A DNA stretch of 11,700 nucleotides from a virus. Lineage: Duplodnaviria; Heunggongvirae; Uroviricota; Caudoviricetes. Position 1 is the stretch's first letter; each line of letters begins with the position of its first letter. Below the pieces are notes generated by a model that saw nothing but the letters and a program-made list of their open reading frames with translations, was not told the DNA's origin and searched no databases. Shown here piece by piece: positions 1 through 11,700 of the stretch. The translations under genes were made by a program, and so were the position numbers. The stretch is taken from IMG/VR virus record IMGVR_UViG_2657244940_000002, positions 1 to 11,700 of that record; one strand, 5' to 3'.

Positions 1-84
1 CAGCAGTATCGGGATGGTTGGGCACTGCGCTTGAATTTATGGATTTCAAGAGTCATGAATAGTAACTATTTGATAATTAATAAA

Positions 85-1380
85 TTAATTTTGCACCACC
101 TCGTTTTGGGGCATGGTTGGGGCAAATTCGCTTAGCTGTGTATTTAACAGGGCTACCTGTGCATTATTGTTTTCAGACATCCATTTCCCGTATACCTGAA
201 ACACCATTTGCGCATCTGCATGTCCCATCTGGTTTGCTATGAATGCCGGGTTGGCACCGGCTGTCAGCGACCAGCAGGCATAAGTATGTCTCGACTGATA
301 TGATTTGCGGTGGCGGAGGCCAGCGCGCTTTATCGCTGCGTCCCACATCTGCCTTATTGAGTCAACGGTAAAATGGTCACCATAATTTTTTACTCTCGCT
401 GACACTTCAGGTTGAAAAACAAAGGTGCATTTTTGTTTTTCTGTTCTGCCGAACTCTCTGAGGTGAACGTCAATAATATGTTCTTTGCTCAGCCTCGTTA
501 GTGTCATCTGACTCCTGAGAGCGTCGATTGCAGGCTTGATAAGGTGAATTACCCGATTGGTACCAGCCTGTGTTTTCGGTACCGTAAAACGATCTTTTGC
601 TAAATTTCTCCTGATCATCATTGTTCCATTTTTCAGATCTATATCCTCCCACCCAAGCGCACACAGTTCACCAGGGCGAATGCCTGTATAAACAGAAACA
701 CACCATAAATTTTTGGCCTGCTGATTTCTGCAGGCGTCGATAAGACGGATAAATTCCTCCCGTGAAAGAGGATCAGGAATGGTTCTTGATTCCTTTAATG
801 GCGAGATCCCCTTAAACGGATTATCTGCCAGGTAACCGTTATCAACACCGAACTGGAACACGGCGTAAAGATTTGTCATGTAATTATTTACGGTGACAGC
901 CGATCTCCCCGGTTGCGTAACAATATAATTACTTTTGGGGATCTGGTATCCAGTAAGTAATTCTTTACGTACCGCCAGCAATTTTTCTTTATTAATCGAC
1001 GAGGCAAGATTTTTTTCACCGATTATGCTCAGAATATTTTTGATGACGGCACGGTACGTGTTGAGTGACGTTTTTGCGACTTCCGTTTCTTTCAGTGCCA
1101 GAAATTTTTCAGCCAGTTCCTTTATGGTTAAATCTTGTCGGGCCTCACCAAATTTTTCCAGATTGTGTGAGGAGGGAAACTGTTTTGCATAGTCGAAAAC
1201 GCCGGTTTTTATTGCATAACAAACAGAGGCGCGCAGCTCACCTGCAACGCGCCTGTTTTTTGTCGTGTCAGGAACCCCCAGATTTTCCCTGACTCTTACA
1301 CCTTTATAAACAAACCAGATACGTAATTTCCCTCCATGGTTTTCCACGCCTGTCGGATATTTCATTTTAGCTTCTCTCAT
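85..1380 (-). CDS. int: Phage tyrosine integrase (site-specific recombinase)
   Basis: 431-aa ORF. C-terminal catalytic region shows the tyrosine-recombinase pattern (…LRHRKSYQSRHTYACW…GHADAQMVFQVYGKWM). A small Xis-like ORF lies directly upstream on the same strand. An alternative start at 1365 (MKYPTG…) has a slightly better Shine-Dalgarno context (AGAGAAG) than the ATG at 1380. Confidence 0.9.
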   Translation of the reverse strand: MREAKMKYPTGVENHGGKLRIWFVYKGVRVRENLGVPDTTKNRRVAGELRASVCYAIKTGVFDYAKQFPSSHNLEKFGEARQDLTIKELAEKFLALKETEVAKTSLNTYRAVIKNILSIIGEKNLASSINKEKLLAVRKELLTGYQIPKSNYIVTQPGRSAVTVNNYMTNLYAVFQFGVDNGYLADNPFKGISPLKESRTIPDPLSREEFIRLIDACRNQQAKNLWCVSVYTGIRPGELCALGWEDIDLKNGTMMIRRNLAKDRFTVPKTQAGTNRVIHLIKPAIDALRSQMTLTRLSKEHIIDVHLREFGRTEKQKCTFVFQPEVSARVKNYGDHFTVDSIRQMWDAAIKRAGLRHRKSYQSRHTYACWSLTAGANPAFIANQMGHADAQMVFQVYGKWMSENNNAQVALLNTQLSEFAPTMPQNEVVQN

Positions 1381-1399
1381 TGGTTAGTATTGTTTTTAG

Positions 1400-1651
1400 T
1401 CAAGTAAGATGACGTCTTGGTCTTGCTGATGCCTGACGTTCAATCCAGCGATCAATTTCTTCCAGGTTGTAAAAGCATGGGCTGTTATCCCATGGCATAC
1501 CGTCATGGGCTACATGCTTATATTCCCTTCCTTCCATAAACGATTTTTCCCTGGCTTTTTTTAGCGTTCCCTTTTTTATTCCTTTCAGCGCAATTAGCTG
1601 TTCTTCGGATACCCATTTACCGGGAGAGACAATCATGATTACTTCGCTCAT
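1400..1651 (-). CDS. xis: Excisionase-like small protein (Xis/DUF1233-like)
   Basis: 83-aa basic ORF ending 20 nt upstream of the integrase start, the usual xis-int arrangement. Family assignment is from position, size and charge only, not a verified match. Confidence 0.55.
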   Translation of the reverse strand: MSEVIMIVSPGKWVSEEQLIALKGIKKGTLKKAREKSFMEGREYKHVAHDGMPWDNSPCFYNLEEIDRWIERQASARPRRHLT

Positions 1652-1720
1652 CGCTTTTATCTCTTACTTCAGATGAGCGCCGGTTGCAGAATACCAGTCA
1701 CAACCGGCGGTGGTTGAACA

Positions 1721-4201
1721 TTAAAAATCAGCCTGACTCGGGATCAGTTTTTGTATCGTAGCTGTAACGTATTTTGCCTGGTGACGGGCGTCATCCAGTG
1801 CATTGTGGCGCACGCCTTCGAATGGAATAACGGTTCTGGCATCAAAGTCGATTGTTTTTCCCAGCTCAACGATTGTGCGTACATCGCGATCGTTGTGGTA
1901 GCGCCACGGGCAGGGGATGTCCAGACGTTCGTATGAGGTGCGCAAAATTGCGTTATCGAAAGTCGCATCATTACCCCATACCTGAACGAATTTTTCATCT
2001 GAGTATTCGTTGATGAACTCCCGAAACTGCGAAAGGGCATCCTTCAGTTTTACCTGGTCTGTTAAAATGGCAGCTCTGGCTTCACTGGACTGCTTCAGCC
2101 ACCATTCGATGGTTCCACCGTCAGGAACAGCCCCTGTATTCATTGCGTCAGTCAGACTGATAACGATATAAAATACTGGCCCGATTTCCCCTGTTTGTGG
2201 GTCGAAGAAAACCGCACCAATAACCACGATGGGCGCATTGGTGTTGGTTCCCATTGTTTCAAGGTCGATCATCAAGTGGTACCACACTCTGCTGGTGGAT
2301 GTGATAACGTGATGACCGTTCACCGCAATTAAGGGATCTGCCGTCTCGCCAGTTTCATTATCGCTGGCGTGGTCCTGAGCGCTGCCAGCATTCTCCTTGT
2401 GTGGATGTTCAGCGCCTTCCATTTCCTCCGGATCATTTTCCTGAACTTCAACCTGATTCTCTTCATTGAATGTTTCCTGGTATGTTGCGTCGCCCATCAC
2501 CGCGCCACAATCAGGGCAGTTGCCGCCGCCGGTCTGACCGCAGGCGGTGCAGATCTTTTCCGGTTCCTGTTGCACTACTGGTTCAGGTTGTTTCGTTTCT
2601 GGCTCATTTTGTAACGCATTTGGGCTGTTTTGTTCCGCTTTCTGGCCGTTCTGTTCCGTTTCTTGCTGGTTCTGGTTCACAGAATCGCGGGTTTCCATCC
2701 CCTTCACCCATTTCGGATCATTCGGATCGCTAATTCCTGCAACAAATTCACCACGTGATACTGCAAGCAGTTCATCGGCGTCAGGCTGGCTGATATTGGC
2801 TGCCTGCATAATGTTGTTTACTTCGTCAGCGGTAACTTTTACCGGCCCTGGTTGTGCGGTCGTGTCAGATGCACCAGTATTTTGTTGTGAACCTGAGTAT
2901 GTACTGTTTTTGCGGACGAAATATTCTTCTTTCGTGATTTCAGTAGCCCCGGCAGCCAGTGCCTTATCCAGACCAGAAAGTTTGTTTGCGCGACCGTATT
3001 TTTCGCCATCCTTGTCGGTGAAGAGGAAGTAGAACGGCCCCTCACGCTCTACAGATGGTTCGACTTCCACTTTGCATTCGGTTTTTTCGTTGTCCGGAAT
3101 TGCCGTTTCCACTGCATCAGTTTCTGGTACTGGCGACGAGAGAGTATCAGTTGCGATCTGATTTGTTCCTTCATCTTCAAACACGCCCTTTGTAGTCAGG
3201 TATTCAGTAATGTATTTGTTCAGTGCCACAGGGTCTTTGTGAATGTCGATCGGACGCTCACGGACAAGGCCAAAAATAGTCTGGCGGTCGTAGCGAAGGG
3301 CATCAGGCTGTTTGCGCATTGATGCTGAGATACGCTTCCAGTCTTCGCGGTCGTTGTTGATAACTTCATTTTTTGCCCAGCGATGGATGCTGCCGTCAAT
3401 GTTTCCGGCATCAATGTCACCAGGCCACAGAGCGTAGGCCAGTTCATCATCCAGTGTTTTCCATGTCTGCTTATATTCGCGACGAATGACTGCAGTGACA
3501 GGGGAGATATTTTCTGCTGAGTTTTCAGTGTGCTGTCGGTTGACTCTGGCGCGGGCGAGATCAACAGCAGACGTGTATTTTCCGGTTTCCTTGCGTTCAC
3601 CTTCGCGACGTTTTTTCCAGATGCGCATCTCTGCCTGAATTTCGGGCCATTTAGCTCCAGGCTTACATTTATGCTTAACCCACCCGATGGCATGCAACTT
3701 AAGTTCTGGATACATGGCGTTAACTTCTGGCATTTTCATCAACGCTTCAACGATATGTCCGTCGAATGTTGCCATGTCTTCCTGCAACAGTTCCTGTGCA
3801 CTAATCACCATATCAACGGTGATGTTTTCACATGTGTCGAACTTAACCATGACAGCGTTCTGTACTTCAGGGGCCAGCTTGTCAAAAGTGACGTTCATCG
3901 GATCTGATTCAGTCTCAACCGGGACAAAGGAAGCTGACTCCTCATCCCAGCGGTTTTCCTGCATATATTCAGCATCCCAGGAATCGAGGGCAGGGCGGGG
4001 TATACCGGGTTTATCCTCGCAAACAAGAAATTTATAAGCGCAGTCCTGAGCAGCCGGATAATGTTCCAGGAATTGCCAGTGAAATTTTGCGCGGGCGCGA
4101 CGTTCATCACCGGCTTCAATGGCAGTGGCTACAGCGACTGCACCTTCTTCCTTTATTGCCTGTTCGTCCGGAATGGCGGCGCAAATAAAGACTTTACTCA
4201 T
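1721..4201 (-). CDS. Large phage exonuclease with C-terminal DEDDh (DnaQ-like) 3'-5' exonuclease domain
   Basis: 826-aa ORF with GAGG about 11 nt upstream of the ATG. C-terminal ~190 aa (nt 1724-2284) carry the three DEDDh motifs: MIDLETMG (Exo I), WGNDATFDN (Exo II), HNALDDARHQA (Exo III). Central Cx2C-x11-Cx2C zinc ribbon (CTACGQTGGGNCPDCG, nt ~2506-2551) flanked by acidic Q/E/P-rich linkers. It occupies the exo/recE slot of lambdoid prophages. Confidence 0.85.
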   Translation of the reverse strand: MSKVFICAAIPDEQAIKEEGAVAVATAIEAGDERRARAKFHWQFLEHYPAAQDCAYKFLVCEDKPGIPRPALDSWDAEYMQENRWDEESASFVPVETESDPMNVTFDKLAPEVQNAVMVKFDTCENITVDMVISAQELLQEDMATFDGHIVEALMKMPEVNAMYPELKLHAIGWVKHKCKPGAKWPEIQAEMRIWKKRREGERKETGKYTSAVDLARARVNRQHTENSAENISPVTAVIRREYKQTWKTLDDELAYALWPGDIDAGNIDGSIHRWAKNEVINNDREDWKRISASMRKQPDALRYDRQTIFGLVRERPIDIHKDPVALNKYITEYLTTKGVFEDEGTNQIATDTLSSPVPETDAVETAIPDNEKTECKVEVEPSVEREGPFYFLFTDKDGEKYGRANKLSGLDKALAAGATEITKEEYFVRKNSTYSGSQQNTGASDTTAQPGPVKVTADEVNNIMQAANISQPDADELLAVSRGEFVAGISDPNDPKWVKGMETRDSVNQNQQETEQNGQKAEQNSPNALQNEPETKQPEPVVQQEPEKICTACGQTGGGNCPDCGAVMGDATYQETFNEENQVEVQENDPEEMEGAEHPHKENAGSAQDHASDNETGETADPLIAVNGHHVITSTSRVWYHLMIDLETMGTNTNAPIVVIGAVFFDPQTGEIGPVFYIVISLTDAMNTGAVPDGGTIEWWLKQSSEARAAILTDQVKLKDALSQFREFINEYSDEKFVQVWGNDATFDNAILRTSYERLDIPCPWRYHNDRDVRTIVELGKTIDFDARTVIPFEGVRHNALDDARHQAKYVTATIQKLIPSQADF

Positions 4202-4281
4202 GTTGTTTTAACCTCATTACAGATTTAAGGGTGAACAAATCTCTGCCATTGCTGGCATATAAAAATGAAACCGGATATTAA

Positions 4282-4485
4282 TTACGGTGCTGTTTTAAGT
4301 CCTGCCGGGATTTCGTTATTATCCATGTGAATAACTTTATCGACCGGATAGCAGTTACCGGGAATTTTTTGTTCTGCTGCGGCAGCCATGCATTCTTTCA
4401 TTGAACCGTAAATGTCAATAACCATGTCAACAGGCTCGCCAGTATTAAGAAAAACAGTCAGAGTGAGGGCAATAGTAGTATTCAT
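4282..4485 (-). CDS. ydfD: YdfD-like small membrane (lysis-type) protein
   Basis: 67-aa ORF starting at the internal ATG (MNTTIALTLTVFLNTGEPV…) with a hydrophobic N-terminal segment. Its ATG overlaps the dicB stop as ATGA. Synteny dicB-ydfD matches Qin prophage. The longer track ORF (to 4539) would overlap dicB. Confidence 0.6.
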   Translation of the reverse strand: MNTTIALTLTVFLNTGEPVDMVIDIYGSMKECMAAAAEQKIPGNCYPVDKVIHMDNNEIPAGLKTAP

Positions 4486-4670
4486 TGCCAGTATCCTTTT
4501 TGCATCGGGCGTAAACGTGCCAGCATTGAAAGAATGCATATTTTATTTAATAGCTCCCGTTCGTGTTTTCTCTTATTAATGGCATCTTCAGTAAATACAG
4601 GGTTACTGATTCTGACACCAATTTCAAAACAACCTTCAGACGTATTGACGTTTGGTAATAACGTTTCCAT
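4482..4670 (-). CDS. dicB: Cell-division inhibitor DicB
   Basis: 62-aa product METLLPNVNTSEGCFEIGVRISNPVFTEDAINKRKHERELLNKICILSMLARLRPMQKGYWQ closely matches my recollection of E. coli K-12 DicB (62 aa). GAGG lies 8 nt upstream of the ATG at 4670. The 94-aa track ORF is an upstream extension with no RBS. Confidence 0.8.
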   Translation of the reverse strand: METLLPNVNTSEGCFEIGVRISNPVFTEDAINKRKHERELLNKICILSMLARLRPMQKGYWQ

Positions 4671-4853
4671 TATCGCGTCCTCAACAATGAATTTTGTGAT
4701 GCGGTGCCTGGTGCCTCCAGGTGACGTTAACCAGTTAATAATTAACGCCGGATACAGAGAACCCACCCATAAGAACCAATACGGAAGTCAACTGGCCTTT
4801 TTAACTGTTCCGCGTGCGCTGAGCCGCATTCACCGCATCACAAAATTCACTTT

Positions 4854-4916
4854 AAAAGGGGCGGGTATCATGGGAAAAACAAAACGGATACCCGCCAAAA
4901 GGTAATCAACATGGGT
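4854..4916 (-). ncRNA. dicF: DicF-like small RNA (divergent homolog) with intrinsic terminator
   Basis: Minus-strand sequence …CCATGTTGATTACCTTTTGGCGGGTATCCGTTTTGTTTTTCCCATGATACCCGCCCCTTTT, about 175 nt upstream of dicB. It has a 10-bp stem (GGCGGGTATC/GATACCCGCC) followed by CCTTTT. The TTTGGCGG(G)TATC…GTTTT…CCGCCC(C)TTTT skeleton resembles my recollection of K-12 DicF, but the 5' and loop regions differ. Exact ends are uncertain. Confidence 0.45.
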
Positions 4917-5326
4917 TGTTGCAGCGGGGTTGTCACTCAGGCGTATGGTCAACCTGACAACCCGGTGGACATTTGCGAGGAACGGAGAACCCCCGCCATA
5001 CTTACCGCCGCGCCATTTCGCGGAGTGCCACAACCGGAAGCGCACGGTCGACGAAAATTTAACGACAGGCTATCTATGAACCAGCAACCTCGCCGTGCGC
5101 TTTCGCGTTATGCTCTGACTTTTCAGAGAAATATCCTTTCAGTAAACTGTCAGTGCCGGATGCTCACCCGTGTCCGGCGCACACACTCCACCTCACCCGT
5201 GGAGAACTCCTTAATTACCAACCCTCAGGAGGGTGAATGTTAAAATCAACGCTTATTGCTAAATGCCTTTATCAAAATCGCATGGTAAGCAGCATTTCAA
5301 TAGGCGAATCTGTAGTTAAAAGTATT

Positions 5327-5352
5327 TTCGAAGAGTACTTTCGAAGAGTACT
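5327..5352. repeat. Perfect 13-bp tandem duplication (TTCGAAGAGTACT x2)
   Basis: Read directly: …AGTATT TTCGAAGAGTACT TTCGAAGAGTACT TTTC…. Each unit contains the palindromes TTCGAA and AGTACT. It sits in AT-rich DNA downstream of the 135-aa cargo ORF. Confidence 0.8.
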
Positions 5353-5460
5353 TTTCTGGGCGTGATTTTAATAAATGGAATACCAAATTACCGCCAGCAG
5401 TTTCAACGCGTATTCTGAAAGCAACTGAAAGAGCAAGTACAATTCGCGTTAACTATTTCA

Positions 5461-5868
5461 TTAAAGATTTGTGGGATCTTTGATATCCACAGAGCCTAAA
5501 GTATGTGCATATGGATGTGCTATTGTGCGCCCCTGTAAATTTGCATCGTTTTCTAAATCTTTTGATTTCAACAGAACATCAGCAAGACTCTGAATCATGC
5601 AGAGATAATCAAAAACAGTTGCCGTTTCTGTTCTGATTGCTGAAATAACATGACCATTCAGGCAAACAGAAATTACCCGTTCATCAATATCGTTTTTCTG
5701 TTTTTGATTATCAGAACCATATAGCCCTGAAAAAGCATTGCGCACATTACGAACCATATTATCGATGGTTTCTTTTTTGGTGTATGCCGGGTCAATTTTC
5801 ACCAGACTATCACCGAGTGTCGTTGCAGCAATTATCTGGATTTCTTTTGGTAAATCTTTAAATTCCAT
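5461..5868 (-). CDS. Hypothetical protein, AT-rich cargo (moron-like) gene inside the dicB operon
   Basis: 135-aa ORF (MEFKDLPKEIQIIAATTLGDSLVK…) with GAGG 7 nt upstream of the ATG. It starts 22 nt after the ydfC-like stop on the same strand. The local sequence is markedly more AT-rich than its flanks. No motif I recognise, and no predicted transmembrane segment. Confidence 0.7.
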   Translation of the reverse strand: MEFKDLPKEIQIIAATTLGDSLVKIDPAYTKKETIDNMVRNVRNAFSGLYGSDNQKQKNDIDERVISVCLNGHVISAIRTETATVFDYLCMIQSLADVLLKSKDLENDANLQGRTIAHPYAHTLGSVDIKDPTNL

Positions 5869-5890
5869 TATTAGCCTCGTTGGTTAACCA

Positions 5891-6109
5891 TTAACGTGGG
5901 TATGTAATCATTCTGGCAATGCTTAATGCCGCTGCTTTTTCCAGATTGGTGATATCCTGCTCCAGAGCGGACAGATTTTCAGCCTGCTTAGCCCTGGCTT
6001 CATTGGCCCATTTCAGGTCCTGCGCAGCCTTAATTTTCTGGTGCATCCACTCATAAAGTTCATCATCGGTATAGTCTGGCGCGATGATGACGGGTTCTCG
6101 TTTCTGCAT
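5891..6109 (-). CDS. ydfC: YdfC-like small protein (dicB operon)
   Basis: 72-aa ORF with GAGGAA 7 nt upstream of the ATG, in the position of ydfC (dicA-ydfA-ydfB-ydfC order as in Qin). Predicted helical/coiled-coil C-terminus. Confidence 0.65.
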   Translation of the reverse strand: MQKREPVIIAPDYTDDELYEWMHQKIKAAQDLKWANEARAKQAENLSALEQDITNLEKAAALSIARMITYPR

Positions 6110-6138
6110 ACTGATTCCTCGCGGTGCTGCTTCGCTTA

Positions 6139-6267
6139 TCAGCCGTTAGATTTTGCCGGGCTGGAAAGCGCCTGTTTAAATTCGCTGAAGCTGAGGGCTT
6201 CTTCGCCTTCGGCAAGGCCTTCGAAGTATTCTTCGTAAGCCTTTTCCATGATTGTGTCGAAATCCAT
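6139..6267 (-). CDS. ydfB: YdfB-like small protein (42 aa)
   Basis: Not in the ORF track (too short). Manual translation gives MDFDTIMEKAYEEYFEGLAEGEEALSFSEFKQALSSPAKSNG with AGGTGG upstream. Its ATG at 6267 lies immediately after the ydfA-like stop (6269-6271). Size and position match ydfB of Qin. Confidence 0.5.
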   Translation of the reverse strand: MDFDTIMEKAYEEYFEGLAEGEEALSFSEFKQALSSPAKSNG

Positions 6268-6268
6268 A

Positions 6269-6424
6269 TCACCCACCTGAATCTCTTTCCAGCCAGCGAC
6301 GCGCTCCAGATTCGGTTTTAAACGTTTTGCTTTTGGTATACGTCATTGCGGTGAACGTGCCGTCCTGGTTTGGAAACACGCCGTACACCAGAGATTCGTT
6401 GTTGCCAAGATCGATAGTATCCAT
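6269..6424 (-). CDS. ydfA: YdfA-like small protein (51 aa, DUF1391-like)
   Basis: Internal start of the 77-aa track ORF: MDTIDLGNNESLVYGVFPNQDGTFTAMTYTKSKTFKTESGARRWLERDSGG, with GAGG 5 nt upstream of the ATG at 6424. It is the first gene downstream of the predicted dicB-operon promoter. The longer N-terminal extension would run into the promoter. Confidence 0.6.
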   Translation of the reverse strand: MDTIDLGNNESLVYGVFPNQDGTFTAMTYTKSKTFKTESGARRWLERDSGG

Positions 6425-6501
6425 GCTGACCTCATTTCCCCTTAACGCCGGGGTAGCGGAACTGTTTGCTGAGAACACCGTGCGGTGTCTTGATGCAAGC
6501 A

Positions 6502-6555
6502 AGATTAGCTATGACTAACAATTTGGTCAAGCATTTTTGTTTGTCATGACTAACA
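6502..6555 (-). promoter_or_regulatory. dicB-operon promoter with DicA-type operators
   Basis: On the minus strand: TTGACC (plus 6525-6530), 17-bp spacer, TAATCT (plus 6502-6507), about 75 nt upstream of the ydfA-like ATG. The palindromic operator TTAGCTATGACTAA (6505-6518) overlaps the -10 and spacer. A related site TTGTCATGACTAACA (6541-6555) lies just upstream of the -35. Confidence 0.55.
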
Positions 6556-6565
6556 TTTTGGGCAA

Positions 6566-6599
6566 CCAAAAAGATAACGCATTGATTGCGTTATCTTTT
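6566..6599 (-). terminator. Intrinsic terminator at the 3' end of dicA
   Basis: Minus strand: CAAAAGATAACGCA-ATCAA-TGCGTTATC-TTTTTGG, a 9-11 bp stem, 5-nt loop and U-tract. It overlaps the dicA stop codon and sits between dicA and the downstream operon promoter. The plus-strand reading also ends in a T-rich tail, so it may act bidirectionally. Confidence 0.45.
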
Positions 6600-6998
6600 G
6601 TTTGTTCGTTGACGGGCTTTTAATAACTCTTCAAAGAGTTTGTTGAAATTTTTTACTCGGGCGCGCATCTCGGTGAGCTGAGCATCCTGTTCTGATTCAG
6701 GCAATGCATTAAAAAGCTCAAGGAGCTCATGTTCTTTGGGGGATAGAGCAACTGGCTCCTCAATAGGTGGTGATGGCTGCTTGTCTTCATCGCCAAATAG
6801 AATCCATGTTGGCGAGCACTGCAGTACTTTGCTGAGGGCAAAAAGATTCTTTCCTGTAGGTTCGCTATCATCCCGCTCCCATTGTGAAACCGATACGTGA
6901 GAAATTTTCAGGGCTTTAGCAAGAGACCTTTGGGTGTATTTGAGGTTTTTTCGGCGATATCTAATGCGTTCGCCAATGGTTAAATTTTTTGTATCCAT
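6591..6998 (-). CDS. dicA: Prophage repressor DicA (XRE-family HTH, P22 C2-like)
   Basis: 135-aa ORF with an N-terminal HTH (…YTQRSLAKALKISHVSVSQWERD…). It closely matches my recollection of K-12 DicA (same length). It is divergent from a cro-like gene, with palindromic operators in the intergenic region. Confidence 0.85.
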   Translation of the reverse strand: MDTKNLTIGERIRYRRKNLKYTQRSLAKALKISHVSVSQWERDDSEPTGKNLFALSKVLQCSPTWILFGDEDKQPSPPIEEPVALSPKEHELLELFNALPESEQDAQLTEMRARVKNFNKLFEELLKARQRTNKR

Positions 6999-7081
6999 AG
7001 TTAGCTAATGCTAAATCTTATTGACTATGTTTTTGTTAACATCTATTTTGTTAGTTATGGCTAACAATTAAGGTGCTTTAA
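6999..7081. promoter_or_regulatory. Divergent dicA/dicC promoter-operator region
   Basis: Two 14-bp palindromic operators, TTAGCTAATGCTAA (7001-7014) and TTAGTTATGGCTAA (7051-7064), match the TTAG-N6-CTAA pattern seen upstream of ydfA. A plus-strand promoter candidate is TTGACT (7021-7026), 17 bp, TATTTT (7044-7049), with AAGGTG before the dicC ATG. Confidence 0.6.
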
Positions 7082-7312
7082 ATGCTTAAAACTGACGCAC
7101 TTTTGTATTTCGGTTCAAAAACAAAACTTGCACAAGCTGCTGGTATTCGTTTGGCTTCGCTTTATAGCTGGAAAGGGGAGCTAGTACCTGAAGGTCGCGC
7201 GATGCGCCTGCAAGAGGCATCCGGCGGGGAACTTCAGTACGACCCCAAAGTTTATGACGAATATCGTAAGGCAAAGCGGGCGGGGCGGTTGAACAATGAA
7301 AATCACCCCTGA
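7082..7312 (+). CDS. dicC: Cro-like regulator DicC
   Basis: 76-aa ORF (MLKTDALLYFGSKTKLAQAAGIRLASLYSW…) divergent from dicA. It matches my recollection of K-12 DicC in size and sequence. Confidence 0.8.
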   Translation: MLKTDALLYFGSKTKLAQAAGIRLASLYSWKGELVPEGRAMRLQEASGGELQYDPKVYDEYRKAKRAGRLNNENHP

Positions 7313-7817
7313 ACAGGTTTGTGAGGCTCTGGATGCCTGGGTGTGCCGACCAGGAATGACACAGGAGCAGGCGACGATATTAATCACGGAAGCATTCTGG
7401 GCTCTGAAAGAACGCCCGAACATCGATGTTCAACGCGTCACGTTTAATGATGGCGAGGTTGATCAACGGGCGCTGGGCGTTAACCGGGTGAAGATATTCG
7501 AACGCTGGAAAGCTATCGACACCAGGGATAAGCGGAAAAAATTCACGGCGCTGATTCCGGCAATTATGGAGGCTATCCGGATTAATGATTTCAGGTTGTA
7601 TCGTGAAATTAGTGACGGAAAAAGCATCACGTACATGATCGCCGGGTTAAACAAAGAATATGGCGATGTGGTGGAGTCCGGGCTGCTTTTTGCAGATCCA
7701 GCTGTAGTGGATCGTGAAACTGACGAACTTATAGAAAAAGCCATTGCTTTCAAACTTGCGTATCGACAGCAATACCAACAAAAAGCTGGATGGAATTATG
7801 AGTCTTCTTTTTGCTGA
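7296..7817 (+). CDS. YdaT-like protein (CII-like regulatory domain family)
   Basis: 173-aa ORF whose start overlaps the dicC end by 17 nt. The central segment …KRKKFTALIPAIMEAIRINDFR… resembles the K-12 Rac YdaT motif (…KIQKLIPAILAILPRELR…), and YdaT sits in the same position after the cro-like gene in Rac. Family call is by resemblance only. Confidence 0.6.
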   Translation: MKITPEQVCEALDAWVCRPGMTQEQATILITEAFWALKERPNIDVQRVTFNDGEVDQRALGVNRVKIFERWKAIDTRDKRKKFTALIPAIMEAIRINDFRLYREISDGKSITYMIAGLNKEYGDVVESGLLFADPAVVDRETDELIEKAIAFKLAYRQQYQQKAGWNYESSFC

Positions 7818-8763
7818 ACGCCCACTGGTTATAAACACGCAGCTGGCAATGAAAATTGGCTTAAACGAAGCCATTGTTTTGCAACAACTGCACTACTGGT
7901 TGAGAGATACCAACTCCGGCATGGAATGTGATGGTGTTCGCTGGATTTATAACACAACGGAACAATGGCTGGAACAGTTCCCGTTCTGGTCAGAGTCAAC
8001 GTTAAAGCGCGCGTTTGCAAGTCTGAAAACGCTGGGGCTTATGCGTTGTGAAAAGCTCAATAAATCAAAGCGCGATATGACCAATTTCTACACGATCAAC
8101 TACGGGAGCGAGCTTTTAGATGGTGGCAAAGTGAGCGAATCCATCGGTTCAAAATGCGCCGCTCCATCAGGTCAAAATGACACGATGGAAGAGGTCAAAA
8201 TGAAACGCTCCATTGGTTCAAAACGGCTCAATGTCATCGGGTCAAAATGGCCTGATGATCTTACAGAGAATACAACAGAGATTACTACAGAGAATAAAAA
8301 CACTTCTCGTCCGGAAGCTTCGCAACCGGACCCGCAGACGGTTGAACAGGATTTTTTAACCCGACACCCTGACGCGGTTGTGTTCAGTGCAAAAAAACGC
8401 CAGTGGGGCAACCAGGAAGATTTGGCGTGTGCGCAGTGGATCTGGGGACGAATCGTGAGTCTTTACGAGCAGGCCGCCAGCGATGATGGCGAGATTTCGC
8501 GACCGAAAGAACCCAACTGGACCGCATGGGCCAACGACGTGCGCACAATGCGGATGCTGGATGGCAGAACTCACAGACAAATTTGTGAAATGTTTGGTCG
8601 GGCGCAGCGGGATCCATTCTGGGTAAAAAATATCATGAGTCCGTCAAAGCTTCGCGGAAAATGGGATGAACTGGTTATCCGCCTGGGGCGTTCGTCTGTA
8701 CAGCGTTGTGTGAATCATATTTCTGAGCCGGATACCGAAATTCCGCCGGGGTTCAGGGGGTAA
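7798..8763 (+). CDS. Phage replication initiator (O-like replisome organizer) containing the origin iterons
   Basis: The likely start is the ATG at 7798 (MSLLFAERPLVINTQLAMKIGLNEAIVLQQLHYWL…); the track ORF begins at a TTG at 7744. The N-terminal region looks like the winged-helix replisome-organizer type. The gene contains a direct-repeat iteron array and is followed by a DnaC-like loader. Confidence 0.75.
   Translation: MSLLFAERPLVINTQLAMKIGLNEAIVLQQLHYWLRDTNSGMECDGVRWIYNTTEQWLEQFPFWSESTLKRAFASLKTLGLMRCEKLNKSKRDMTNFYTINYGSELLDGGKVSESIGSKCAAPSGQNDTMEEVKMKRSIGSKRLNVIGSKWPDDLTENTTEITTENKNTSRPEASQPDPQTVEQDFLTRHPDAVVFSAKKRQWGNQEDLACAQWIWGRIVSLYEQAASDDGEISRPKEPNWTAWANDVRTMRMLDGRTHRQICEMFGRAQRDPFWVKNIMSPSKLRGKWDELVIRLGRSSVQRCVNHISEPDTEIPPGFRG
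8146..8250. repeat. Iteron array (putative origin of replication) inside the initiator gene
   Basis: Five direct repeats of GGT(T)CAAAA(T/C)G starting at 8146, 8170, 8193, 8215 and 8240 (spacing 22-25 bp, about two helical turns). They are followed by ACAGAGA(A/T)T repeats in 8263-8300. In the protein they appear as the repeated (S)IGSK motif. Confidence 0.6.
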
Positions 8764-8768
8764 CGGCC

Positions 8769-9515
8769 ATGAAAAATATCGCGGCAGGTGGTGTTCTTGA
8801 GCGTATCCGTAAGCTGACCCCGCAGCATGTAATCGCGCCGTACCGGACAGTGGATGAGTGGCGCGAGTGGCAACTGGCTGAAGGGCGAAAACGTAGCGAG
8901 GAGATCAACCGCCAGAATCGCCAGTTGCGGGTGGAAAAAATCCTGAATCGTTCGGGCATCCAGCCTCTGCACAGCAAATGCTCGTTTGCGAATTATCAGG
9001 TGCAGAACGACGGGCAAAAACATGCGCTGAGCCAGGCAAAATCCATCGCTGACGAACTGATGACCGGGTGCACGAATTTTGTGTTCAGCGGTAAGCCGGG
9101 TACCGGAAAGAACCACCTTGCAGCCGCCATTGGCAATCATCTTCTGGCGAAAGGTCGCAGCGTGATTGTGATAACGGTGGCTGATGTGATGCTGGCGTTA
9201 CACAACAGCTACGACAACAAAAACTCAGGCGAAAAATTTTTACAGGGGTTGTGTGATGTTGACCTGCTTGTCCTGGATGAAATCGGAATGCAGCGGGATA
9301 CGCGCAACGAGCAGGTCACACTGAACCAGATAGTCGACCGCAGAACGGCTTCGATGCGTAGTGTCGGAATGCTGACGAACCTGAACCACGTAGCGATGAG
9401 TACGCTTCTTGGCGAGCGTGTGATGGACCGCATGGTCATGAACGGTGGTCGCTGGGTGAATTTTAACTGGGAGAGCTGGCGTTCGAATGTCAGACACCTG
9501 AGGGTTGTGAAGTAA
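8769..9515 (+). CDS. DnaC-like helicase loader (IstB-like AAA+ ATPase)
   Basis: 248-aa ORF with Walker A (GKPGTGKNHLAAAIG) and Walker B (DLLVLDEIG). It starts 6 nt after the initiator stop. Confidence 0.85.
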   Translation: MKNIAAGGVLERIRKLTPQHVIAPYRTVDEWREWQLAEGRKRSEEINRQNRQLRVEKILNRSGIQPLHSKCSFANYQVQNDGQKHALSQAKSIADELMTGCTNFVFSGKPGTGKNHLAAAIGNHLLAKGRSVIVITVADVMLALHNSYDNKNSGEKFLQGLCDVDLLVLDEIGMQRDTRNEQVTLNQIVDRRTASMRSVGMLTNLNHVAMSTLLGERVMDRMVMNGGRWVNFNWESWRSNVRHLRVVK

Positions 9516-9529
9516 TTTCAGGAGGACTT

Positions 9530-9946
9530 ATGGTAAAAGTTTTTACTCCCGAACAACGGGAAGAAGTAAAGGCGCGTATTGTGGAACTGGTACGCAGAGA
9601 TGGTAGGAAAACGCGTAAACAACTGGAAAATGAAACAGGGGCGACGAGACATCTGATTGAAGTTCTGGCGAAAGAACTGGTAGACAGTGGTGTTGTATAT
9701 GGTTCAGGGCATGGAATATTCCCTTCTGAGCAGGTACGTAAAGACTGGATAAAAGCCCATAAAGAGATGTCTAAAGGTGCAGCGAAAAAGAAGAGCGACC
9801 CTGGCCTGATTTATTCATTACCAGATGGAGAGATACGCCACTACGACAGGCGTCAGAACATAATCTGTCTCGAGTGCCGGAAAAGCAAGGTTATGCAGCG
9901 TGTGCTGGCGTTTTATCAGGGTAATTTTCAGGAGGTGATGGCGTGA
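9530..9946 (+). CDS. Hypothetical early-region protein (138 aa)
   Basis: Strong AGGAGG Shine-Dalgarno before the ATG. Basic N-terminus. Its stop overlaps the next start (ATGA-type overlap at 9943-9946). No family recognised. Confidence 0.65.
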   Translation: MVKVFTPEQREEVKARIVELVRRDGRKTRKQLENETGATRHLIEVLAKELVDSGVVYGSGHGIFPSEQVRKDWIKAHKEMSKGAAKKKSDPGLIYSLPDGEIRHYDRRQNIICLECRKSKVMQRVLAFYQGNFQEVMA

Positions 9947-10248
9947 GGGTGAGGGTTTATATCGCCGGTCCAATGACGGGGTATGAAAATTTCAACCGTG
10001 AGGCGTTTCACAAGGCAGAAGAGGAACTGAAACGGGAAGGGCATACCGTTTTAAATCCGGCTGTGCTTCCGGATGGGCTGACACAGCCGCATTACATGGA
10101 TATTTGCATGGCAATGATTCGTTGTGTGGATGCGATTTACATGCTGAAAGGCTGGCAGCGGTCAGCAGGCGCTAAGGCAGAACTGGCGCTGGCGGAGAAA
10201 CTGGGGCATGCGGTGATTTTTCAGGAGACAGCCAGTGTGCAAGACTAA
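9943..10248 (+). CDS. DUF4406-like protein (nucleoside 2-deoxyribosyltransferase-like fold)
   Basis: 101-aa ORF beginning MRVRVYIAGPMTGYENFN…, the N-terminal YIAGPMTG-type motif of DUF4406 / deoxyribosyltransferase-like small phage proteins. Assigned from motif memory only. Confidence 0.6.
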   Translation: MRVRVYIAGPMTGYENFNREAFHKAEEELKREGHTVLNPAVLPDGLTQPHYMDICMAMIRCVDAIYMLKGWQRSAGAKAELALAEKLGHAVIFQETASVQD

Positions 10249-10690
10249 TTACCAGGCATTACGTGAACGTTATTCACCAATTCAGGTGCCGGAATGTTCT
10301 GTTTGTGGCGATGAAATGTCGATACAGCGCATATTTTCCAGAGCGCATATTGTGTATGCCTGCACAGGTGAGGGGGATGATGGATATTTTAAAACTGGTC
10401 GAACTTTTGCGGATGAACATTACCTGAAATCGCGCGTAACCGTCGTTGATGTTAGCGATCCTGACGTACTGGCTTTACTGAAAGAGCTGGAAGTTAAAGA
10501 CAAACGCATTGCAGAATTGACAGACGCGCTTACACAAATGATTAATGCGCACAAAACCACAATTCGTTTTGGTCATGAACGCATAACTGAATGTGGTGGT
10601 GATTGCGACTCGCCGGAAAAGATGATTTCAGAAAATCCGGATATCAGAATGGCAGAGGCTGTTTTGAGAGCAGGAATAAAAACTGAATAA
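10235..10690 (+). CDS. Hypothetical protein with Cys clusters (possible zinc-binding), GTG start
   Basis: 151-aa ORF starting at a GTG with AGGAGA 6 nt upstream. It overlaps the previous gene by 14 nt. Contains CxxC (ECSVCGDE) and CGGDC cysteine clusters and a central coiled-coil-like segment. Confidence 0.6.
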   Translation: MCKTNYQALRERYSPIQVPECSVCGDEMSIQRIFSRAHIVYACTGEGDDGYFKTGRTFADEHYLKSRVTVVDVSDPDVLALLKELEVKDKRIAELTDALTQMINAHKTTIRFGHERITECGGDCDSPEKMISENPDIRMAEAVLRAGIKTE

Positions 10691-10780
10691 TTAAATTTAG
10701 CACAGCAAATAAAATTTAATCCTTAACCGGAGGGATTTCTGCACCCTCAGAACATCAGGAGGCCGCCTGAAAGGGCGGTA

Positions 10781-11203
10781 ATGAAAATGACTGAATTAAC
10801 AAAAGAACAATTAATCGAAGAAGCCAAATTAAAAATAGCGATTACGAAATGCCACCCCAATTCAGGGATGGCGCGAGTAGAGGGCGAGTTATTCAAAATT
10901 GCACTGGCATCGCTGGAAGCAGAGCCGATAGCGTGGCGATATCGCTACGTGAAAAAAGGTGTTATGGACTCTCAGGGGGAGTTGTGGGTTGGTGACTGGA
11001 AATATGTACCGAAAAAAGAGGATTGTAACGACAGGCCGAACTATGAAATTCAGGCCTTATTCACTGCCCCACCAGTCCCGGTTACATCAGAAGAACTGGT
11101 TAAAGCTGTGCACTTTTATGAACAACTAAAACGCGAAAATCCACCAGCATCCGGCAACCAGATTAATGGGTTAACTATGCCGGTTAAACGACCAGCCGAC
11201 TGA
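10781..11203 (+). CDS. Hypothetical phage protein (140 aa)
   Basis: ORF with good coding appearance, preceded by a 90-bp intergenic region containing short hairpins. No family recognised. Confidence 0.6.
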   Translation: MKMTELTKEQLIEEAKLKIAITKCHPNSGMARVEGELFKIALASLEAEPIAWRYRYVKKGVMDSQGELWVGDWKYVPKKEDCNDRPNYEIQALFTAPPVPVTSEELVKAVHFYEQLKRENPPASGNQINGLTMPVKRPAD

Positions 11204-11414
11204 AAAACGGAAACCTGATTACAGATTCCCAGATAAGGCAATGAGCTACCTGGCGTAGAGTGGGCTGATAAGTATGGGGAATGTTTTACGATGAATACTT
11301 AGACTAAAGAGTTTGTAACGCTATGTAAGTGATTTTTTCTGGTTTAGATATTTATATGTCCGGCCAAATTGAGGTGTGTTTAAATGTAATTGCACATTGA
11401 TTGTAGGGGGAATA

Positions 11415-11546
11415 ATGAAAAACGCATTGCAGTTTTTGTTTGTTGCGTTCTGGTTGTTCGCATCATGTATGCCCATCATCTTCACAGCAAGGTATATGGA
11501 AAAAATTGATGTTTTGATATTCTGTCAGGATGTGCGCCGGTGGTAA
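11415..11546 (+). CDS. Possible small hydrophobic peptide (43 aa)
   Basis: Manual ORF MKNALQFLFVAFWLFASCMPIIFTARYMEKIDVLIFCQDVRRW with AGGGGG 4 nt upstream of the ATG and a hydrophobic N-terminus. It overlaps the 3' end of the convergent partial ORF, so it is uncertain. Confidence 0.25.
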   Translation: MKNALQFLFVAFWLFASCMPIIFTARYMEKIDVLIFCQDVRRW

Positions 11547-11700
11547 TCGACTGAATAATCTCCCCCGTCGCCACGTTAATGACCGATAACGCATTCGCTT
11601 CAAATGAAGTCGCATAAATCAACTTTTCATCCAGGCTTAATGCCAGCGATCTGACGCCCTGATCTTTACAGCCACCACAATGTTTGACTGACTTTTCTTT
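11482..11700 (-). CDS. Partial CDS (C-terminal 72 aa; 5' end beyond the window), beta-propeller-repeat-like
   Basis: Minus-strand frame is open from the window edge to the TGA at 11482-11484: …GVRSLALSLDEKLIYATSFEANALSVINVATGEIIQSITTGAHPDRISKHQFFPYTLL*. The SVINVATGEII pattern resembles YVTN-type beta-propeller repeats. It may be a host or cargo gene at or beyond the prophage edge. Confidence 0.4.
   Translation of the reverse strand, partial: KEKSVKHCGGCKDQGVRSLALSLDEKLIYATSFEANALSVINVATGEIIQSITTGAHPDRISKHQFFPYTLL

Follow-up and report, generated by a model that had tools for sequence, protein, structure and literature searches.

A blunt join between a Qin-type prophage arm and a rhomboid protease gene at the tip of an Escherichia coli draft contig, probably made in sequencing or assembly

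Introduction

The locus described here raises the question of whether a lambdoid prophage truly ends where its early region gives way to unrelated DNA. The DNA concerned, hereafter the window, is a stretch of 11,700 nucleotides (positions 1 to 11,700 of IMG/VR record IMGVR_UViG_2657244940_000002). In its last segment (11204-11700), a sequence-only reading made without database searches had described an AT-rich gap of 280 bp after the last plus-strand early gene, a minus-strand frame running open from the window edge to 11482 with a YVTN-like repeat signature and an odd C-terminal tail, and a 43-aa hydrophobic ORF with a strong ribosome-binding site (RBS) overlapping the end of that frame. It was proposed that these features could mark a prophage boundary, with the prophage being truncated or defective at this point, or else the presence of a cargo gene.

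Results

Phage and chromosomal DNA meet at a single blunt join

A three-way alignment of the window with the phage and chromosomal sequences revealed only one discontinuity in the interval, between positions 11521 and 11522, within both of the odd ORFs. The sequences across the breakpoint (slash) read as follows.

Window, 11521..11522: ...TTGATATT/CTGTCAGG...
Phage: ...TTGATATT/AATGTTTGG...
Chromosome: ...GGATAAAG/CTGTCAGG...
Native rhomboid sequence, longer form: ...GAGAGGATAAAG/CTGTCAGGATG...
Phage continuation, longer form: ...TTTTGATATT/AATGTTTGGACATATAAATGCC...

The join is blunt and not a single base at it is common to both partners, which rules out microhomology-mediated joining. A break caused by an insertion sequence (IS) was likewise rejected, no IS being present at the join and the chromosomal partner, a rhomboid gene, being continuous there in all 3,236 complete genomes that carry it.

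All matches to phages and prophages end at 11521 and all matches to chromosomal DNA begin at 11522. When the whole window was used as the query, the best relatives (AST205, 99.6% identical, cS51a and E300082) aligned to 11521 and no further, and the match to isolated phages carrying the same module ended at the same base. Thus, the proposal of a prophage boundary was sound inasmuch as phage homology does stop in the interval; the stop is not an att-type end (attL lies at 1-50, see below), nor is it placed at 11482 or in the AT-rich gap. The adjacency of the two partners was assessed by a megablast search with positions 11150-11700, scoring any place that covered at least 80% of this query. Thousands of matches were returned, and such a place was present in none of the 5,426 complete E. 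coli genomes. An exact scan with a 46-mer spanning the junction showed it to be absent from one-genome-per-species contigs, from IMG/VR viral contigs and from JGI metagenome contigs. A search for literature on the assembly accessions returned nothing relevant.

The left partner is the arm of a Qin-type prophage

The main features to the left of the junction are the following.

1-50: attL region; 1-47/50 homologous to ydfJ, the Qin integration target
85-1380, minus strand: tyrosine integrase, 431 aa, marking the true left end of the prophage
10781-11203, plus strand: last complete phage gene, 140 aa, phrog_660; the exact protein is found in 261 blocks of the collection
11204-11414: ordinary phage intergenic spacer, 211 nt, 37.4% GC; identical in L019 and, over the aligned part, in AST205
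11415-11521, plus strand: opening 35 codons, with 2 further nt, of a hydrophobic phage ORF of 59 aa that recurs ahead of hokD in intact relatives

Positions 1-11521 make up the left arm of a lambdoid prophage of the Qin/Rac type that is integrated in ydfJ. Genomes without a prophage at the site matched the query over positions 1-47/50 only, in DNA annotated as ydfJ, and the identical prophage present in draft contigs L013-L021 adjoins rspB-rspA-ynfA-ynfB-speG. These two observations place attL at the left end of the window and identify the integration site as the Qin locus. AST205 and O157 prophages with the same type of integrase matched only from position 32, suggesting that the core starts near 32 and that another flank is used in those strains; the bacterial arm probably corresponds to positions 1-31 and the core to positions from about 32 to 50. 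An identical integrase gene in L013 encodes the Arm-DNA-bind_2 (PF12167) and Phage_integrase (PF00589) domains. Further genes of the arm specify an XisR-type excisionase, a RecE-like exonuclease, DicB, YdfA/B/C, a repressor, Cro, YdaT, O-like and DnaC-like replication proteins, DUF977, DUF4406 and Ea22-like proteins and, finally, the 140-aa phrog_660 protein. The latter, for which no Pfam family was found and whose phrog is of unknown function, ends at 11203, exactly where the last early gene had been placed.

The gap reported after this gene is moderately AT-rich (38.1% GC in 11204-11481 vs 46.5% in the whole window). It proved to be a normal phage spacer followed by the recurrent phage ORF. 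In the spacer, no sigma-70-like promoter was recognized, a single weak hairpin was seen on the minus strand (11208-11231) and no RNA family reached the Rfam gathering score. The ydfJ target, the rspB side (as seen in the identical prophage of L013-L021) and the set of modules are shared with the cryptic Qin and Rac prophages of K-12, which end at att sites or in DNA neighbouring the integration site. The prophage in the window differs in that it breaks off within a small ORF, at 11521, where unrelated DNA is attached.

Where relatives have an identical or near-identical arm, the DNA past 11521 comprises the 59-aa ORF, hokD and genes for a Fic/Doc toxin, Rem, DUF968 and RusA proteins, followed by a Q-like gene. 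Methylase, holin, endolysin and terminase genes come next in AST205 and in more distant relatives, L003 among them, and tRNAs are annotated in AST205. A continuation of phage genes, together with the minus-strand frame being a normal phage gene, had been named beforehand as evidence that would speak against a boundary. The first part is borne out in the relatives, from hokD to the Q-like gene and, in AST205 and L003, on to lysis and terminase; the second is not, as the minus-strand frame is no normal phage gene. A genuinely truncated prophage exists in L007 (GCA_000939255.1; 7 SNPs relative to the window), with IS1 following the Q-like DUF1133 gene. The prophage of this lineage is defective, and its real right end lies several kb beyond the junction of the window.

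Other features of the arm and its relatives deserve mention in their own right. A set of three direct repeats, each about 23 nt long and containing GGTCAAAATG(A/G), occupies positions 8165-8257, inside the O-like gene (7744/7798-8763); these look like the iterons of a lambdoid origin. Two 23-nt direct repeats, ATGACTAACAATTTGGTCAAGCA and ATGACTAACATTTTGGGCAACCA, are found at 6511-6568, directly downstream of the stop codon of the repressor-like gene (6591-6998, minus strand) and before the ydfA-like gene (6269-6424); the sole non-genic SNPs between the window and a relative (6510, 6545 and 6562) fall at this repeat region. About 790 nt with no called gene (4671-5460) separate dicB from a 135-aa ORF and hold a perfect 19-nt inverted repeat (4688-4706 / 4831-4849). 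In the Qin prophage of K-12, dicF is located in this neighbourhood; an Rfam scan of the whole window yielded no family at the gathering score, DicF included. At the truncation of the L007 prophage (14928-16153), the IS1 is followed by ydfI-ydfZ-ydfH-ydfG-dcp, with no lysis or structural genes.

The right partner is an internal piece of a rhomboid protease gene

A single feature accounts for the DNA to the right of the junction.

11522-11700, minus strand: internal fragment, residues 339-397 of 625, of a rhomboid protease; chromosomal gene between lnt and gltI

The allele in the window matches the one typical of phylogroup B2 (Nissle 1917, ATCC 11775, STEC299) at 100% identity. The full-length relative, WP_001276748.1 of strain Nissle 1917, is 625 aa long and is encoded between lnt and gltI (L002 8316-10193). 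The gene was found in 3,236 of the 5,426 complete E. coli genomes (about 60%), with only 2 extra places, and is single-copy and unbroken at the breakpoint in every genome having it. This distribution and the presence of frameshifted and truncated versions in the protein database (P0004, P0006) indicate that the gene is accessory and often decaying.

The Nissle protein contains a Rhomboid domain (PF01694, residues 60-201, E=1.4e-28) followed by a C-terminal beta-propeller. The propeller scored 24.1 bits with Lactonase (PF10282), above the cut-off of 21.7, and 23.3 bits with YNCE (PF21783), under the cut-off of 27.1; the YVTN-like signature noted in the window was thus right in kind. Ser133, in the motif GASGA, and His187 are present in the full-length protein and lie outside the portion contained in the window. 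The same two residues are reported to be catalytic in Rhom7 of Shigella sonnei (SSON_0610), a rhomboid protease with seven TMDs and a C-terminal domain (Liu et al., EMBO J 2020, PMC7232013). Sharing with Rhom7 a Rhomboid domain, Ser133/His187 and a large C-terminal domain, the gene would appear to be its E. coli counterpart and a putative orthologue. The window departs from Rhom7 in holding only residues 339-397, from the propeller, with no catalytic domain and no start codon, and its frame, made up of 59 native and 13 foreign residues, does not qualify as a functional protein of this type. The C-terminal domain of the full-length protein also resembles the seven-bladed propellers of the YncE/lactonase group (PF21783, PF10282; 'YVTN' repeat type), and one database fragment is titled 'YncE family protein, partial'. 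In contrast to YncE, which is free in the periplasm, the E. coli domain is fused to a rhomboid protease, and about one blade of it lies in the window.

The rhomboid/propeller gene had no match in 50,697 phage records. The suggestion that the window carries a cargo gene is contradicted by this result and by the chromosomal position of the gene, between lnt and gltI, in 3,236/5,426 genomes. A cargo gene (moron) would be expected as a complete ORF in phage genomes, and what the window contains is residues 339-397 of 625 only.

The odd reading frames are products of the junction

Two short segments, one on each side of the breakpoint, are read in frames that cross it.

11482-11521, minus strand: chimeric tail of the minus-strand frame (RISKHQFFPYTLL, then stop); phage DNA read antisense
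11522-11546, plus strand: chimeric tail of the 43-aa ORF (FCQDVRRW, then stop); rhomboid gene antisense, with codon TT/C spanning the junction from 11520

The minus-strand frame comprises 72 codons from the window edge to the stop at 11482 and ends in ...DRISKHQFFPYTLL (in longer form, ...GAHPDRISKHQFFPYTLL). Where the native rhomboid protein reads ...GAHPD-SFILSRDG..., the window has the 13 residues RISKHQFFPYTLL after GAHPD instead. The earlier description of an open, non-phage frame encoding part of a beta-propeller therefore stands, with the correction that the frame is chimeric and only the last 179 nt of the window are native to the gene; the odd tail is indeed foreign to the rhomboid protein. 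A search of the protein databases with the 72-aa fragment, a check recommended at the time, retrieved rhomboid/propeller relatives, and the chimeric tail was carried by no database protein.

The hydrophobic ORF, MKNALQFLFVAFWLFASCMPIIFTARYMEKIDVLIFCQDVRRW (11415-11546, plus strand), is preceded by the Shine-Dalgarno sequence AGGGGGA, in agreement with the strong RBS previously noted. It is, however, a chimera made by the junction: codons 1-35 of the 59-aa phage ORF are followed by 8 antisense rhomboid codons. A look-up of the 43-aa and 56-aa versions of the chimeric ORF found neither on record anywhere as a called gene. Both odd frames are thus read-through products of the junction, each consisting of a truncated real ORF and a few antisense codons of the other partner.

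In L003, L005-L012, L019 and L020, the 59-aa ORF itself (MKNALQ...CIEYWR) is called at the corresponding place, starting from the same ATG as the 43-aa ORF. Its predicted product has two helices and a GRAVY of 1.15; the ORF has a strong RBS and lies directly upstream of hokD in many lambdoid prophages (coordinates are 10635-10814 in L007 and 280-459 in L019). It is called by Prodigal-type programs and left without annotation by PGAP in AST205, and a search for Pfam and PHROG families found none.

The window is a complete draft contig

The window turned out to be identical in sequence to the entire draft contig CDRA01000564.1 (GCA_000947375.1; 11,700 bp), which, as contig number 564, belongs to a fragmented assembly. 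A look-up of the 72-aa partial product returned exactly one contig on record, the same CDRA01000564.1, in which chromosomal DNA makes up just the last 179 nt. Hence, the truncated or defective prophage end proposed for this position is seen in one draft contig only, 179 nt from its tip, and the apparent truncation is most likely not biological.

A sister draft contig, L019 (GCA_000939215.1, CCCD01000012.1), shows 0 mismatches to positions 1-11521 and extends past the equivalent of 11521 with 352 nt more of phage DNA, up to its own contig end; other close relatives have 4-7 differing sites in the same segment. In four independent related draft assemblies with the same prophage (L018-L021), the contigs stop 161-364 nt past the breakpoint, that is, at window-equivalent positions 11682-11885 in the spacer/hok region. 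Because of these stops, the hok-proximal region is recognized as a repeat-induced break point of short-read assemblies. The left end of the window contig, 31 nt outside the att core, is likewise unique DNA, and therefore the assembly breaks at non-repeats too.

The two partners are nearly one megabase apart in a B2 chromosome

STEC299 carries the Qin site at 2.397-2.402 Mb and the rhomboid gene at 3.388 Mb; both are collinear with the window. The junction is therefore of the deletion type, with partners about 0.99 Mb apart. The side removed by such a deletion begins with the C-terminus of the rhomboid protein and continues with lnt. This gene and many others in the interval of about 0.99 Mb are essential in E. 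coli. A simple deletion would therefore not be viable. A single inversion was ruled out by orientation, both sides running in the same direction in STEC299; an inversion would pair the lnt-side half of the gene with the int-side arm of the phage. The chromosomal flank of L019 and the rhomboid allele have their best matches in the same B2 strains (STEC299, M16807, Es_ST80 and 95-3322). Since both halves fit one B2 background, a chimera formed within one genome suffices and no second strain is needed. A cross-strain chimera, or contamination, was consequently dropped as unnecessary.

Discussion

Origin of the junction

We infer, with a probability of roughly 0.8, that the junction is the chimeric tip of a contig, made during sequencing or assembly and not in the cell. 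The likely cause is a chimeric read, or the over-extension of a contig end, by which a contig due to terminate near the hok-region repeat gained at most one read length of unrelated DNA. In the actual chromosome, the prophage would probably continue into hokD, as it does in the 100%-identical L019 assembly, and the rhomboid gene would probably be intact at its own locus. The junction occurs in one assembly only, shows neither repeat nor microhomology and is within about a read length of the contig end, all of which are marks of a chimeric contig end. As with chimeric ends in short-read draft assemblies, the join is a unique, blunt one of distant loci of the same genome, less than a read length (179 nt) from the end of a short contig, in a region where sister assemblies break too. 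The present case differs from them in the length of the overhang, which exceeds k-1 for common de Bruijn settings. A pure de Bruijn chimeric path, on rejoining the true locus, would normally end k-1 nt past the junction, so that 179 nt would require k=180, an unusual value; an overlap or extension step has therefore to be assumed. A second point against an artefact is the non-repeat left end of the contig, which would allow for a genuine join with a chance gap in coverage beyond it. We estimate the chance of a break within 179 nt at 2-3%. The foreign 179 nt are single-copy, continuous DNA elsewhere, and no genomic feature accounts for a real path coming to a halt there.

The explanation that comes next, itself improbable, is a real event of illegitimate recombination in the strain or in a subpopulation, whereby a complex rearrangement (a translocation or a multi-step process) joined the interior of the prophage to the rhomboid gene. 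Such an event would truncate the prophage before hokD and remove most of the beta-propeller from the rhomboid protease. Blunt, homology-free joins are what illegitimate recombination leaves, and both halves do fit one B2 genome; the deletion-type geometry, with about 0.99 Mb including the essential lnt gene between the partners, nevertheless calls for extra events that were not observed. Marginally less probable still is its specific form in a B2 isolate, where the junction is real and a larger rearrangement retains the essential interval at another place, leaving a rhomboid protease without most of its periplasmic propeller. Decay is known among prophages of this lineage, as exemplified in L007, where an IS1 adjoining ydfI cuts the prophage off past the Q-like gene; yet the 100%-identical sister prophage in L019 is not truncated at 11521, and the junction is present in no other genome, metagenome or protein set searched. 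Assembly breaks in unique DNA, as at the left end, make a random break 179 nt past a real junction conceivable, against which stands the fact that the contig stops 179 nt into single-copy DNA. A cryptic prophage truncated by deletion would be expected to border on neighbouring DNA and to be inherited; here the partners are 0.99 Mb apart with lnt in between, and 0 of the 5,426 genomes, none of the three contig collections and not L019 have the junction.

It is distinctly less likely that the prophage captured, as a passenger, a host fragment of at least 179 nt from the rhomboid gene and that phage DNA resumes past the contig end. The captured fragment would then be a two-copy repeat and the contig would break there, which would explain its end so shortly past the entry into otherwise single-copy DNA. 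Mosaicism around the hok region is a feature of lambdoid prophages, but the rhomboid gene is without a match in the phage records, no complete E. coli genome has a copy adjoining the phage module and only 2 extra places exist among 3,236 genomes. Moreover, the fragment is internal, promoterless and fused to antisense sequence, with no function as cargo, and the sister prophage, identical up to the junction, is without it.

That the junction could be the natural right end of the prophage (attR), or that the prophage could be integrated in the rhomboid gene, is next to impossible: phage homology does stop at the junction and the flanking gene is chromosomal, but it is the integrase-proximal end that has ydfJ homology and adjoins rspB in relatives, the right end has no second att core, a phage ORF is interrupted by the break at least 25 kb short of the late genes, and 3,236/3,236 genomes are unbroken at this rhomboid position. 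The comparison with prophage-free genomes, suggested earlier as a way of finding att sites at both ends, disclosed ydfJ at the left only and no right-end repeat. The longest exact word common to 1-100 and 11204-11700 is 7 nt, and a repeat search gave no family of this kind. The right flank is the rhomboid gene and not the other half of ydfJ, and related prophages and isolated phages do not share this end, running on to the 59-aa ORF and hokD. No part of the interval functions as cargo or as an att site.

Implications

The case calls for caution when contigs are read as genomes, as their chimeric ends are then flagged as 'boundaries', 'odd tails' or 'overlapping small ORFs'. With the breakpoint mapped and the 11.7-kb window known to be a draft contig in full, none of the odd features of the segment remains. 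A real junction would represent one strain-specific rearrangement truncating a cryptic prophage and a non-essential accessory protease, and would be of local interest only. Two elements are worth study apart from the junction: the unannotated 59-aa ORF upstream of hokD and the Rhom7-like rhomboid/propeller gene.
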